From a phage, in sequence record PX930852.1: 64,000 bases of DNA, one strand, 5' to 3'. Position numbers and translations under genes: made by a program. The notes beneath the pieces were generated by a model. The model did no database searches. It was not told where the DNA came from and saw only the letters and a list, made by a program, of their open reading frames with translations. This document shows positions 15,769-28,093 of the stretch, in pieces. Position 1 is the first letter of the stretch, and each line of letters starts with the position of its first letter.

Positions 15769-15776
15769 AACAAAAA

Positions 15777-15798
15777 AGGCTCCCGTAAAAAGGAGCCT
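15777..15798. terminator. bidirectional terminator between convergent genes
   Basis: AGGCTCC-loop-GGAGCCT hairpin flanked by A-run and T-rich tract. Confidence 0.55.
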
Positions 15799-15804
15799 TA
15801 AACT

Positions 15805-16176
15805 TTATTTTTCAGTATTCTTTGTGTTCTTCTCAGTAATAGCTTGCAAGGCTGATACTGATTGAGCCAGATTGTTCACACTGTCAGAGAATTTATCAAG
15901 AGTTTTGGTAAGTTTTGCGTTTTCACCCTTAACATTCTCTAACTGAACTTTCTGGTTCTCCATCCCTAGCTGAATCAGTCTCATGTCAGACTGTAAATCA
16001 CGAATAGCTGAATAGTTACTTTTGGAATAATTATCTAGCTGCTGTAACTTTGTTGTGACAGACACTTCTTGCTTACCACTTGAAACTTGCATAGTGGTAT
16101 ACATCCCAATAACACTAAAAATACCAACTACAATTGCACCAATATTGTTTTTAAAAGCTTCCTCTAGCCACTTCAT
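15805..16176 (-). CDS. membrane-anchored coiled-coil protein (possible spanin/holin-like)
   Basis: N-terminal TM segment IGAIVVGIFSVIGMY followed by coiled-coil; sits downstream of the tail fiber genes. Confidence 0.45.
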   Translation of the reverse strand: MKWLEEAFKNNIGAIVVGIFSVIGMYTTMQVSSGKQEVSVTTKLQQLDNYSKSNYSAIRDLQSDMRLIQLGMENQKVQLENVKGENAKLTKTLDKFSDSVNNLAQSVSALQAITEKNTKNTEK

Positions 16177-16371
16177 TTATTTCTCCCCCTTAAAAGCTTT
16201 TTCTAAGTTATCTACGAACTCATCATCAATAGGCGTGTCTGTTTTACTCGCAAGGTATCTTGCAAGCTTAAAGAACACTTTCTCAATCATGTATTCACTT
16301 AGAAGGGATAAAATGAGTTTCCAGAAGAAGCTACCTAGATTTTTTAGAAGAATTGCTAGGATTGTAGGCAT
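16177..16371 (-). CDS. small membrane protein (64 aa)
   Basis: hydrophobic N-terminus; abuts 15805..16176. Confidence 0.4.
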   Translation of the reverse strand: MPTILAILLKNLGSFFWKLILSLLSEYMIEKVFFKLARYLASKTDTPIDDEFVDNLEKAFKGEK

Positions 16372-16450
16372 TTAATCACCTCATCAGCCAAGATGGTGAG
16401 AATACCCATAAAGAATATTAACACCGTCTTAACAATCAGTCAACAAGGGA

Positions 16451-18835
16451 TTAAGCAGTTCTTACCCAAGCCATTAACTTGTAGAACTGGTTAGTAACAC
16501 TGAATGCTGAACCAGAACCTGTACCACCAGTGTTACCACTAACTGTATGAGTGTGAGCACCGATACCTACAGAGTGGGTGTGAGCACCAGTGTTACTTGT
16601 AGTACCAGACCATGTGTGTGTATGGTTACCAGTTGTGTTAGTGTTAGGGAATTTGTTATCTTTTCTATCAAGCCAGTCAAGAGTTCTTGTCTTGCTGTTG
16701 CTAACAGTTGTGTAACCATACTGAGCATCACCACCATTAACCAATAGCAGACCTAAGTGGTGAGCATGGTTACCCGCAGCACTTGTTGTACCACTTACAG
16801 TGTGGGTGTGACCACCAGTACTATTAGTGCTCTTCGTACCATAATCAAAAGATGAAGTGGTAGCAGAGAAGCTGTGAGTGTGTGATGGTAAGTTACCAAC
16901 AGCTAATGTTACAGAATCTGAACCACCAGTTGTAGCAACATCTGAACCGTTAGCTGCTGCGATTCTGATAGTTCTACCAACACCATTGTTCAGGTACGTC
17001 CAAGTTAACCCAGGCAACGCTGTGTTAGGGTCAACATTACTGTTAAACCACGTTACAATGCCTACTGGATAGATTTTATTAAGGTCTGTAGAGTCACTAA
17101 TTGCTGTTGCAATTTTCTGGTCAGTTTCAGCTTTAGTGTATGCACCAATATCTGAAGGGGTTGGTTTAAAATCAGTTGTATAAAGTTGTGCTTCTCCGGC
17201 ATAGTCACCATTTTTGTCATAGGCATAGGTGAATGTTGCCAGACCGTTTGAACCGTATACAAAAGAGATACCCCTTGCATGTGCAGCAGACTTACTAGAG
17301 TGAGCAACATGAATTGCCAACTCTTTCAGACCACTAGTCACACTGTTGTTTCTGACAAAACCTGAATATCCAAGATTAAATGCTGAAGGGTTTTCAAGGT
17401 TATCTACAGAGACAGTCATTAAGGATTGATTTAATAACTGAGTTTTAACAAAATATCTAGCATCTAAGTTAGACCAATCAGAAGGTTGTACTTGACCAGT
17501 AATTGTTAGATTCTTATTAGCCTTAATCGCTGAGGACATAAGAGTAATTTGAGTCCCAGAGTAGCTGTTGTTTAATGCTACATCAGTAGAATTTGTGCCA
17601 CCCACACCTACCCACCACCTAGATACATTCTGGGTATCAACACCACGGATATATTGTGGCTGTCCCTGTGTTAAGTTTCTTAATACTACGCCTTCATTAT
17701 TTGATACAATAGTTTGCACATTCACAAATGTGTTAGCAACATTAAGTTTAGGTAGGTTACTCAAAGTTGCTGCTGGGATGTATCTAGAGTCAATGTTAGC
17801 CCAATCTGAAGGTTGAACTTGACCAGTGATTCTGAAGTCCTTGTTTACTGCGACATGACCATTGTCAAGTCTAAGATAAGAACCATACACATAGTTGCTG
17901 ATGAATACAGCAGGTGTATTATCACCATTTCCTACATACCACTTACCAGAACCATCATTAGCTTCGGCTTTAACGTATAGTGCAGCATTTGCTACAGTAT
18001 TTTTCAACCTTAAAGCAGCACTGTCACTAATAATAAGTAGGTTTCTGCTAAACGTGTTAGTGCCAGTGAAATTGTTATTAGCAGCTAACTGTGCAAATCT
18101 CTGATTAGCAACTGTCTGTGTGAAGTATCTAGCATCTAAGTTAGAGAAGTCAGAAGGTTGGACTTGACCAGTGATTCTAAGTGTTTTACTGATAGCAGCA
18201 ACACTAGACAGATTCACTTCACAACCTGTCTTGTAGTTGTGGATAATAACATCATCATTCCCTGAACCATTACCTACATACCACCTATTAGCACCAGTGC
18301 TGTCCTGACCTCTAATATACAACGGTGAGTTCTCAGAAGAATTTTTTAGTCTAATAGCTTCGCCATTTGCTTGAATAACCTGTTGGAAGGTAAAGATGTT
18401 ATTTGCAGCTAATCTTGAGTATCTTGCATCATTCTCTTCATTAGTTCTCATCCCAAGCTCATTAGGACTTGGCTTATTCAGGGTATGATAAACAGTTGCC
18501 GACCTTGAAGCATCTGCAATAGTTAGCTTAAGACCGTTTGCGTTAATTTTAAAAGTCTTTAAAACATCCCCAATATTAATCTCAGAAGAGCCTGTAGGGT
18601 CAAATACTGTCTTACCACCATAAAGTAACTTAACAATACCTAAATCACCCGTCATGGTACTACCAATAATCTGAACAAATCTCTCAAGCTTAAAAGATGC
18701 TAAGAAATCTTGATAGGTCATTCGACGGTCTTCATCACCCAGCATTTCAGGTCTCTTTTTAACTCTGACATGAAGAAGGTCATCTGAACGGATTGTATCG
18801 ATTGAGTTTAATTCACTCAACTTGTAATCTGCCAT
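16451..18835 (-). CDS. tail fiber protein
   Basis: 794 aa; repeated segments ending SDWSNLDARY; His-rich C-terminal HxH repeats (HTHTVSG, HTHSVGIGAHTHTV) as in T4-type fiber tip domains. Confidence 0.75.
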   Translation of the reverse strand: MADYKLSELNSIDTIRSDDLLHVRVKKRPEMLGDEDRRMTYQDFLASFKLERFVQIIGSTMTGDLGIVKLLYGGKTVFDPTGSSEINIGDVLKTFKINANGLKLTIADASRSATVYHTLNKPSPNELGMRTNEENDARYSRLAANNIFTFQQVIQANGEAIRLKNSSENSPLYIRGQDSTGANRWYVGNGSGNDDVIIHNYKTGCEVNLSSVAAISKTLRITGQVQPSDFSNLDARYFTQTVANQRFAQLAANNNFTGTNTFSRNLLIISDSAALRLKNTVANAALYVKAEANDGSGKWYVGNGDNTPAVFISNYVYGSYLRLDNGHVAVNKDFRITGQVQPSDWANIDSRYIPAATLSNLPKLNVANTFVNVQTIVSNNEGVVLRNLTQGQPQYIRGVDTQNVSRWWVGVGGTNSTDVALNNSYSGTQITLMSSAIKANKNLTITGQVQPSDWSNLDARYFVKTQLLNQSLMTVSVDNLENPSAFNLGYSGFVRNNSVTSGLKELAIHVAHSSKSAAHARGISFVYGSNGLATFTYAYDKNGDYAGEAQLYTTDFKPTPSDIGAYTKAETDQKIATAISDSTDLNKIYPVGIVTWFNSNVDPNTALPGLTWTYLNNGVGRTIRIAAANGSDVATTGGSDSVTLAVGNLPSHTHSFSATTSSFDYGTKSTNSTGGHTHTVSGTTSAAGNHAHHLGLLLVNGGDAQYGYTTVSNSKTRTLDWLDRKDNKFPNTNTTGNHTHTWSGTTSNTGAHTHSVGIGAHTHTVSGNTGGTGSGSAFSVTNQFYKLMAWVRTA

Positions 18836-18854
18836 TATAAATTTTCCTCTTAAA

Positions 18855-18872
18855 AGGGGCTATAAAGCCCCT
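18855..18872 (-). terminator. terminator/attenuator between tail fiber genes
   Basis: AGGGGCT-ATAA-AGCCCCT hairpin; U-run in minus sense. Confidence 0.5.
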
Positions 18873-18881
18873 GTAAAGAAA

Positions 18882-20069
18882 TTAAGCTGTTCTCTGCCAT
18901 ACATACAGCACGAATGATGGCTGCTCAATGTTGAAAGCTTGTCCACCACCAACACTATTAGTGTTTCCACTATGTGTATGCTCAGAAGAAGAAACTGCCA
19001 CAGTACCATTGTGTGTGTGTGAACCAATACCAACTGTATGGCTATGAGCACCAATACCCACCGTATGATTATGGTTACCAGTTGTGTTAGTGGTAACGCT
19101 AAAAGAGTGGGTGTGCGAACCAGCGACTTCACAGACAGCATCTGCTGAGTACCATGATTGGTCATTTCTTGTAGACCAAACCATTGCAGGTCTCTCCGAT
19201 AGGCCACCACCCGCTTCATAGGTCAATCTGTGGTTGTGAGCACCAGCAGCACTTGTTGACCCACTACCAACGTGATTGTGGTTACCAGTTGTGTTAGTAG
19301 TCTTTGTTCCATAGTCAAAAGAGTTGGTAGTCTTAGTCCCATAGTCAAAAGCTGAAATTGAAACAGTTGCATTATGAGTGTGACCACCACCACTAAGAGA
19401 TACAGAGTGTGAGTGTTGAGGCATGTTATTAACTGACAAAGTGACAGTCGAAGCACCAAATACAGAACCTGCTGGCCTTGTATCAGAGTCATAGCCAACC
19501 AATGCCCTACCTTTTGAAACCAACTCCCAAGTACCTCCACAAATTAAGTATGTAGAAGGGTTTGCAGAGTTCATAGAAAGATGGATAGTACCTACTGGAT
19601 AAGAAGCCTGAACAGCCTTGTACAAGTTATTTACTGCTCTTGCTGTAGCATACTTATCTGCATCTTCATTATACAGGTTAGATGTTGTCCAGTTCTGAAC
19701 ATTACTTAAACCAACCTGTGCCTTAGTTGTATTGTGTGGGTTACTCTTGTCCTTGATATGTTGCTGAACAAGGTTATTAACCTCTTCTGAAGACATAATC
19801 TGTAGATTTGCTCTTGCCTCAGCTACATTAACAATATCTGATAAGTTATTTGCAGCGACTAACTGAAGAGCATTAATAACGTTATCTAAACCAATTTGTG
19901 TTTTAGTCACACCATGAGGGTTATTTCTTAGGCTTGAGTGTGGAGCAAGTAATTGCTCAAGAGTACATCTCTTATCCTCAATACCCTGCTTAAGATGGAA
20001 GATATCACTAAGGTCAATTGGTAAGGCTGCTTGAGGCAAGGCACTAATTTGAATTTCACCTACCGCCAT
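18882..20069 (-). CDS. tail fiber protein (paralog)
   Basis: 395 aa; same HxH-rich C-terminus and shared terminal motif (W.RTA) with 16451..18835. Confidence 0.7.
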   Translation of the reverse strand: MAVGEIQISALPQAALPIDLSDIFHLKQGIEDKRCTLEQLLAPHSSLRNNPHGVTKTQIGLDNVINALQLVAANNLSDIVNVAEARANLQIMSSEEVNNLVQQHIKDKSNPHNTTKAQVGLSNVQNWTTSNLYNEDADKYATARAVNNLYKAVQASYPVGTIHLSMNSANPSTYLICGGTWELVSKGRALVGYDSDTRPAGSVFGASTVTLSVNNMPQHSHSVSLSGGGHTHNATVSISAFDYGTKTTNSFDYGTKTTNTTGNHNHVGSGSTSAAGAHNHRLTYEAGGGLSERPAMVWSTRNDQSWYSADAVCEVAGSHTHSFSVTTNTTGNHNHTVGIGAHSHTVGIGSHTHNGTVAVSSSEHTHSGNTNSVGGGQAFNIEQPSFVLYVWQRTA

Positions 20070-20071
20070 TA

Positions 20072-28093
<8,022 letters not shown>

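Follow-up and report, generated by a model that had tools for sequence, protein, structure and literature searches.

A 3.6-kb region of the phage DNA in record PX930852.1, at positions 16451-20069 of the 64,000-nucleotide stretch analysed here (the window), encodes two neighboring tail fibers whose C-terminal ends are both rich in histidine-x-histidine (HxH) motifs, and raises the questions of what these fibers are, what the histidines do and how the two proteins are related. An earlier reading of the letters alone, which we refer to as the original prediction, took them to be paralogous fibers with metal-coordinating, receptor-binding tips. We find that the two genes very probably encode the short tail fiber (STF) and the long tail fiber (LTF) of a Felixounavirus, each ending in a collar, needle and head of the bacteriophage T4 gp37 type.

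The region is filled exactly by two intact open reading frames (ORFs) on the minus strand, 16451-18835 (794 amino acids) and 18882-20069 (395 amino acids), with the longer lying downstream of the shorter and 46 nucleotides between them. The best match to the DNA is Escherichia phage EF202P1 (Felixounavirus, Ounavirinae), with 98.2% identity along the whole region. The names of the 239 phage records matched are nearly all Escherichia, Salmonella, Felixounavirus, Enterobacteria or Shigella phage, and Felixounavirus is the classification of every matched record that was examined. Both genes carry tail-fiber annotation in EF202P1 and in other annotated records, and both are full length by comparison with their homologues, which span 792-796 amino acids (LTF) and 388-402 amino acids (STF). 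Proteins 100% identical to the LTF and 99% identical to the STF are present in the databases. Judged by sequence, the genome is that of a Felixounavirus, a Felix O1-like myovirus of E. coli.

We assign the two ORFs to the STF and LTF of such a coliphage because the genes upstream match, in order, chains of PDB 9NDY, the baseplate of phage Bas63 (JohannRWettstein) (PMC12609058), and because of the global identity of the two fibers to Bas63 gp26 and gp27. The genes concerned, all on the minus strand, are as follows.

21234..22703, minus strand: baseplate wedge protein 2, 489 amino acids, Baseplate_J by Pfam; matches PDB 9NDY chain H (gp023), E 0
20374..21231, minus strand: baseplate wedge protein 1, 285 amino acids; matches PDB 9NDY chain J (gp024), E 5.5e-182
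20072..20374, minus strand: LTF platform protein, 100 amino acids; phmmer match to PDB 9NDY chain S (gp025), E 1.6e-65
18882..20069, minus strand: STF gene, 395 amino acids; orthologue of Bas63 gp26; phrog_2097 tail fiber, E 6.5e-138
16451..18835, minus strand: LTF gene, 794 amino acids; orthologue of Bas63 gp27; phrog_4277 tail fiber over its full length, 1241 bits

Bas63 (MZ501086) has its genes in the same order, with wedge 2, wedge 1, LTF platform, STF and LTF followed by two small ORFs and then by thyA and dhfr in convergent orientation; the dhfr-thyA pair in the window likewise converges on the fiber genes. In the cryo-electron microscopy study of Bas63 (Sci Adv 2025; PMC12609058), gp026 is the STF (430 Å) and gp027 the LTF (630 Å), the STF N-terminus binds wedge 2A and the LTF N-terminus binds the LTF platform, which is carried by wedge protein 1. 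Both fibers are described there as having a collar, an HxH needle and a head, at which the chain doubles back to the collar. In global alignments, Bas63 gp26 is 80% identical to the window STF, and gp27 is 62% identical overall to the window LTF, with the beta-helix cassettes and the distal needle and head representing different alleles; the N-termini, the collars and the C-terminal 35-40 residues of the fibers are identical or nearly so. A similar pair, gp74 and gp75, is found in the Felixounavirus VpaE1, where the C-termini of both proteins were noted as homologues of the T4 gp37 adhesin and the N-termini were found to be conserved and the C-termini variable (Viruses 2015; PMC4690856). VpaE1 DNA is 88% identical to the window over 84% of the region, with different tip alleles. 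The two fiber proteins that the original prediction had placed between 16451 and 20069 are therefore borne out by intact ORFs that end at just these limits, by the annotation of their relatives and by their orthology to fibers of the Bas63 virion.

The histidine motifs are equally plain. The LTF carries six, at residues 652, 676 and 690 and, after a gap, at 738, 752 and 761; the STF carries nine, at 219, 230, 264 and 278 and then at 319, 333, 342, 351 and 364. We refer to the two runs in each protein as outgoing and returning. These counts exceed every one of 2000 shuffles of each protein, which gave a mean of 0.47 and a maximum of 4 for the LTF and a mean of 1.40 and a maximum of 6 for the STF, and of the 20 HxH motifs carried by the 41 window ORFs that are 150 amino acids or longer, 15 sit in the two fibers. 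The repeated motifs that had been noticed near both C-termini are thus well above chance, and the strings quoted in support of them are all present: HTHTVSG at LTF 676-682 and again at 761-767, GNHTHTWSG at LTF 736-744 and HSHSVS at STF 219-224. The shared terminal W-x-RTA is also found, with the LTF ending in MAWVRTA and the STF in YVWQRTA. A 14-residue 'phage tail fibre repeat' in Pfam falls over one of the LTF motifs. We considered whether nine motifs make the STF unusual and rejected this, since more of the retrieved STF homologues have nine than any other number. Two out-of-frame ORFs on the minus strand, of 119 amino acids (18860-19219) and 105 amino acids (19223-19540), overlap the needle-coding half of the STF gene; we read them as probable by-products of the repetitive HxH-coding sequence, not as genes.

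Both tips are homologous to that of T4 gp37, for which a structure is available (PDB 2XGF, residues 785-1026). With phmmer, STF residues 146-366 match residues 18-227 of the 2XGF chain (E 7.3e-26) and LTF residues 645-773 match residues 92-218 (E 5.6e-19). In a three-way alignment of T4 gp37 785-1026 (from AF158101) with the C-termini of the two window proteins, six HxH columns are common to all three (T4 H883/885, 915/917, 929/931, 966/968, 980/982 and 989/991), and the window tips are 40-43% identical to T4 over 204-232 aligned residues. The seventh T4 motif (998/1000) is present in the STF and missing in the LTF. Two further motifs of the STF fall inside insertions relative to T4, one in the outgoing run (219 or 230, depending on the alignment) and one in the returning run (364), so that the chains carry seven motifs in T4 gp37, six in the window LTF and nine in the window STF. 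Relative to T4, the LTF is short by one segment per strand and the STF is longer by one segment per strand, and such a paired loss or gain on both strands is what a hairpin needle of differing length would require. The shared features comprise the collar, the in-register HxH needle, the FDYGTK motif, the head loop and a final strand of the form ...AF...V/W-R-x-A: the C-terminal strings AFSVTNQFYKLMAWVRTA of the LTF and AFNIEQPSFVLYVWQRTA of the STF align with T4 NIAFNYIVRLA. At the other end of the tip, the LTF segment YPVG...GNLPSHTH, directly N-terminal to the needle, aligns with the T4 collar. The proposed resemblance to the metal-coordinating domains of T4-type fibers is in this way upheld by the 2XGF matches and by six motifs in register, but with a correction: the HxH motifs belong to the shaft of the needle and not to its tip.

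The counts can also be compared with those of Bas63. The LTF has six motifs in Bas63 as in the window phage, with an extra histidine beside the third that follows the motif in the window (HAHH) and precedes it in Bas63 (HHNH). The Bas63 STF has seven (two outgoing, five returning), a number also given by the Bas63 authors, and a head spacing of 80 residues, whereas the window STF has nine (four and five) and a spacing of 41 residues, a difference that arises because the distal needle of the window STF is a T4-like allele.

On the basis of these alignments and of profile matches, the two proteins can be divided as follows, beginning with the STF.

19635..20069, minus strand: STF residues 1-145, N-terminal baseplate-binding region; near-identical to Bas63 gp26
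19422..19634, minus strand: STF residues 146-216, collar domain; Pfam Gp10_C (PF21939), E 1.1e-18, above the cut-off
19224..19421, minus strand: STF residues 217-282, outgoing needle strand with HxH at 219, 230, 264 and 278 and a duplicated FDYGTK motif; from the three-way alignment
19122..19223, minus strand: STF residues 283-316, head domain, predicted receptor-contacting loop; the least conserved stretch of the protein
18966..19121, minus strand: STF residues 317-368, returning needle strand with HxH at 319, 333, 342, 351 and 364; from motif positions and the three-way alignment
18882..18965, minus strand: STF residues 369-395 and stop, C-terminal return segment ending AFNIEQPSFVLYVWQRTA; from the three-way alignment
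18416..18835, minus strand: LTF residues 1-140, conserved N-terminal baseplate-binding region; near-identical to Bas63 gp27
17450..18439, minus strand: LTF residues 133-462, three gp37_trimer (beta-helix) repeats with QPSD[FW]xN[LI]DxRY linkers; Pfam PF20744, three matches
17096..17449, minus strand: LTF residues 463-580, further shaft before the collar; Pfam gp37_C at 500-583, E 0.002, below the cut-off
16886..17095, minus strand: LTF residues 581-650, collar domain (YPVGI...GNLPS); matched to the collar of T4 gp37 by the three-way alignment
16757..16885, minus strand: LTF residues 651-693, outgoing needle strand with HxH at 652, 676 and 690; phmmer match to 2XGF, E 5.6e-19
16631..16756, minus strand: LTF residues 694-735, head domain, predicted receptor-contacting loop; enclosed by the two HxH runs
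16532..16630, minus strand: LTF residues 736-768, returning needle strand with HxH at 738, 752 and 761; from motif positions and the three-way alignment
16451..16531, minus strand: LTF residues 769-794 and stop, C-terminal return segment ending AFSVTNQFYKLMAWVRTA; aligns with T4 NIAFNYIVRLA and is identical in Bas63

The N-terminal region of the STF contains two NPHxxTKxQ[IV]GLxNV helix-turn motifs, at residues 50 and 110, and its collar aligns both with the 2XGF collar and with the C-terminus of T4 gp10. The similarity of the STF collar to collar-type domains of T4 gp10 and gp12 (Gp10_C PF21939; PDB 2FKK) includes a sequence match to T4 gp10 chains at E 2e-5; this match is limited to the collar (143-220), whereas the gp37 match runs on through the HxH needle.

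We propose that each fiber is a homotrimer whose conserved N-terminus plugs into the baseplate, the STF on wedge 2 and the LTF on the 100-residue LTF platform encoded just upstream. The shaft of the LTF would consist of beta-helix cassettes joined by the conserved QPSDWxNLDxRY linkers. Beyond the collar, each chain would run out along the needle, form a small head and run back, so that three chains build a six-stranded beta tube, and the W-x-RTA end would be the last strand, returned to the collar end. The HxH motifs of the three chains would point inward and together bind one metal ion on the three-fold axis, which in T4 is Fe2+, and the histidines would then act as structural staples and not as receptor contacts. 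The loop between the two HxH runs (approximately 694-735 in the LTF and 283-316 in the STF) is predicted to be the part that touches the receptor. For Felixounavirus the receptor class is lipopolysaccharide (LPS), which the heads may bind. The T4 ions are reportedly bound octahedrally by HxH motifs of all three chains (Bartual et al., in 2010), with the motifs per chain equal to the ion count. We would accordingly predict six metal sites per LTF trimer and nine per STF trimer, because in T4 there is one ion per HxH triad. This general layout agrees with the published description of the T4 and Bas63 needles, in which histidines coordinate ions along the inside and the head contacts the receptor (PMC12609058).

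The fibers differ from that of T4 in how the tip is mounted. In T4, gp37 forms the distal portion of a jointed four-protein fiber (gp34-37), whereas each fiber of the window is a single polypeptide directly on the baseplate. T4 gp37 needs the chaperone gp38, and tblastn at E up to 1 found no homologue of gp34, gp35, gp36 or gp38 in the window (gp57A was not searched for). A dedicated folding chaperone is a feature of the T4 system rather than of the fold.

Several observations weigh against this architecture. An AlphaFold2 (AF2) single-chain model of the full STF, built from a 53-sequence alignment, has a mean predicted local distance difference test (pLDDT) score of 64.5; only the collar is confident (pLDDT 80-87), and the needle and head score 42-62. 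A Foldseek search of the PDB with this model returned nothing significant and did not recover 2XGF, the best match being the C-terminal domain of T4 gp10 at a non-significant E of 0.17. The Pfam Gp10_C match on the LTF collar (E 4e-4) has a score of 21.7 against a cut-off of 27 and so falls below it, and the collar assignment is weaker for the LTF than for the STF. For Bas63 itself, side chains could not be modelled in the fiber density (PMC12609058), and the Bas63 fiber chains were absent from the matches when PDB sequences were searched with both fibers. We do not count the AF2 and Foldseek results against homology because such failure is expected for one chain of an intertwined trimer. Structure prediction, which the original prediction had named as a check, was thus informative for the STF collar, and the modelled needle and head are too poor to show a fold. 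The needle fold is instead assigned from sequence homology together with the published studies of Bas63 and T4; the hairpin pattern appears in the alignments, as a variable loop between two HxH runs and a conserved C-terminal strand aligned to that of T4, in the part where the AF2 monomer is poor.

We next consider how the two fibers are related and how they might divide the work of adsorption. Aligning the two C-termini, another of the checks named at the outset, leaves no doubt of their homology (BLASTP, 35% identity over 255 columns, E 6e-23). At the N-termini the similarity is marginal (BLASTP E 0.045; hhalign of the first 60 residues, E 0.005, probability 7%), a signal too weak to claim paralogy from sequence there, while the Bas63 authors describe the baseplate-binding domains of both fibers as structurally alike (PMC12609058). 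In the three-way alignment the tips are 44% (LTF-STF), 43% (LTF-T4) and 40% (STF-T4) identical. With all three values at 40-44%, we rejected a recent duplication, because the distance between LTF and STF is about that of each to T4; the identities point to an ancient shared module, in which the two tips would have diverged from one another about as long ago as from the T-even tip. The description of the fibers as paralogous duplicates is therefore apt for the homologous C-terminal 210-250 residues, and it does not extend to the only marginally similar N-termini or to any recent event.

The dual receptor specificity that had been read into this duplication is a separate matter. Dual receptor use by the two fibers is plausible, and it could take two forms. 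In the first, the fibers would act in sequence, as T4 gp37 and gp12 do, with the LTF making the first, reversible contact and the STF then binding the LPS core irreversibly and triggering contraction; under this model the two fibers would not be alternative host specificities. The fibers are on the same virion, they differ in length and in attachment point (wedge 2 versus LTF platform), and in Bas63 the occupancy of the LTF is variable while the STF is well ordered (PMC12609058), all of which a sequential division of labor would accommodate. It has to be set against this that both fibers carry a gp37-type tip and neither a gp12-type tip, that both are folded up along the sheath in the Bas63 map (PMC12609058), and that the role of the short fibers in Felix O1 relatives is called unexplored in BASEL. 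We give sequential action a real chance, but one somewhat short of even. In the second form, either fiber would be enough on a given host and the pair would broaden the host range. The two heads are unrelated in sequence, and both tips vary among relatives, with alleles that assort independently of the rest of the gene, as alternative specificities would predict; the sequential model predicts the same variability, and we regard this second possibility as rather unlikely. For comparison, VpaE1 is specific for the truncated LPS core of E. coli B (PMC4690856).

Variability is not confined to the tips. The LTF shaft contains three repeats of approximately 107-114 amino acids (133-239, 240-353 and 354-462) that are 31-43% identical to one another and match Pfam gp37_trimer (PF20744) three times (E 1e-69), with a weak match of the region to the T7 gp17 fiber (4A0T/4A0U). 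Each repeat closes with ITGQVQPSD[FW][SA]N[LI]D[AS]RY, and the repeat ends are also seen in the DNA, as three copies of 66 nucleotides with 76-83% identity. The original prediction had the internal repeats end in SDWSNLDARY; repeats with ends of the form QPSD[FW]xN[LI]DxRY are indeed present, three in number, and that exact string occurs in the third alone. Five beta-helix domains were counted in the Bas63 LTF shaft (PMC12609058).

Among the 120 closest relatives of the LTF, identity to the window phage is bimodal for cassette 1 (141-220) and for cassette 2 (261-340), lying either at 90% or above or at 30-50%, and each of the eight possible combinations of the alleles of cassette 1, cassette 2 and the head is represented. 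In the same set, residues 1-140 are 96-99% conserved, the QPSDWxNLDxRY linkers between cassettes 0.94-0.96 and the collar 96-100%; the tip, too, is well conserved, in part a selection effect of having ranked these relatives by overall similarity. The free assortment of alleles indicates, as far as sequence comparison can, exchange of cassettes inside the LTF gene, for which the linkers are plausible recombination anchors because they are repeated in the DNA. The Bas63 authors remarked on the unexpected variability of the beta-helix domains and named host recognition among the possible explanations (PMC12609058). We considered whether the shaft cassettes, exchanged through recombination at the linkers, might be further, laterally acting surfaces for recognizing the host, such as its O-antigen or LPS. 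We think this improbable; if it were true, there would be at least four independently exchangeable specificity modules across the two fibers.

Within the tips, the position of the variable residues bears directly on the role of the histidines. Across 48 STF homologues, identity to the window protein is 0.85-0.95 in the N-terminus and collar taken together (79-95% conservation for residues 1-145) and falls to 0.29-0.35 at residues 286-315. Among 53 sequences, H219/H221, H342/H344 and H351/H353, together with W391 and R393 near the C-terminus, are invariant or nearly so. Across the head, where successive HxH motifs lie farthest apart, the spacing is 34-58 residues in most STF homologues with the four-plus-five arrangement and up to 80 in tips of the Bas63 type. 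The LTF tip compared with that of Bas63 gives the same picture: the two are identical through the collar and the first HxH, divergent only at approximately 678-755 and identical again over the last 40 residues, a pattern that on alignment is the signature of a swapped specificity cassette. Because variability maps between the HxH runs and the HxH motifs are conserved, the histidines are best read as staples and the heads as the receptor contacts. It might be supposed instead, as the position of the motifs in the C-terminal quarter of both proteins, beside the specificity-determining region, could suggest, that the repeats themselves are the receptor-binding surface and that metal ions contact the receptor at the fiber end. 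This is very improbable: the HxH columns are conserved across T4, the LTF, the STF and homologues from phages of different hosts, what varies is the sequence between the two runs, and the descriptions of T4 and Bas63 place the ions inside the needle and the receptor contact at the head (PMC12609058).

The idea that one of the genes is a decaying duplicate, a pseudogene or a non-virion protein, which the original prediction had named as a way in which it might fail, finds no point in its favor and is refuted, with virtually no probability left to it, by two intact, full-length ORFs, 99-100% identical to database proteins and conserved at that level in many independent contigs, by the presence of the Bas63 orthologues in the virion map and by the VpaE1 paper, which cites its Figure 5 (virion proteins by mass spectrometry) when naming both fibers (PMC4690856).

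The spacer between the two fiber genes also has structure of its own. A hairpin, GGGGCU-UUAU-AGCCCC, lies at 18846-18881 (minus strand) in the 46 nucleotides between the STF stop and the LTF start, with an outer stem in which UUCUU pairs with AAGAG of the LTF ribosome-binding site. Its computed stability is -16.5 kcal/mol (z = -3.7), which none of 200 shuffles equalled. Bas63 and EF202P1 have exactly this spacer, and KhF2 has it with a one-base difference; the KhF2 record marks a Rho-independent terminator at this place. The hairpin could attenuate transcription or gate translation of the LTF. The KhF2 record (KT184314) also places a 10-nucleotide 'cos site' at 1340-1349 of the extracted locus, inside the long tail fiber coding sequence, which looks like a motif-match annotation and not a real packaging site.

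Beyond the LTF gene lie two small conserved ORFs of 64 and 123 amino acids (15805-16371, minus strand), both with a hydrophobic N-terminal segment and the larger also with a coiled coil. As candidate chaperones they returned from Pfam and PHROG only families of unknown function (402 and 4038) and coiled-coil noise; one faint match to an Rz-like spanin was seen. A promoter-like TTGACT-17-TAATAT stands upstream of them (flank 16415-16443), and a bidirectional terminator hairpin lies between the pair and the convergent thyA (flank 15776-15799). The two products might serve in fiber assembly or in lysis. Farther away, the window contains a tRNA array (39799-45025, minus strand) of 25 genes by ARAGORN and 24 matches by Rfam, the calls not being in full agreement: a weak tRNA at 43300-43378 is called by Rfam alone, and a Tyr tRNA (44374-44461) and a Met tRNA (44696-44772) by ARAGORN alone. 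The Felix O1 genome paper gives 22 tRNAs. Two ORFs within the array, at 39973-40770 (265 amino acids, its end overlapping a tRNA-Phe call) and 41159-41716 (185 amino acids), may be mobile inserts of the endonuclease type.

The two fibers, their gp37-like tips and the HxH needles are already known for Felixounavirus from VpaE1 (2015) and Bas63 (2025), and with proteins 99-100% identical already public the value of this locus as a discovery is small. Its practical value lies in annotation, in that it marks the likely determinants of host range (LTF approximately 694-735, STF approximately 283-316 and possibly LTF cassettes 1 and 2) and sets them apart from the conserved scaffolding. Engineering or predicting the host range of Felix O1-like therapeutic phages requires mapping of this kind.

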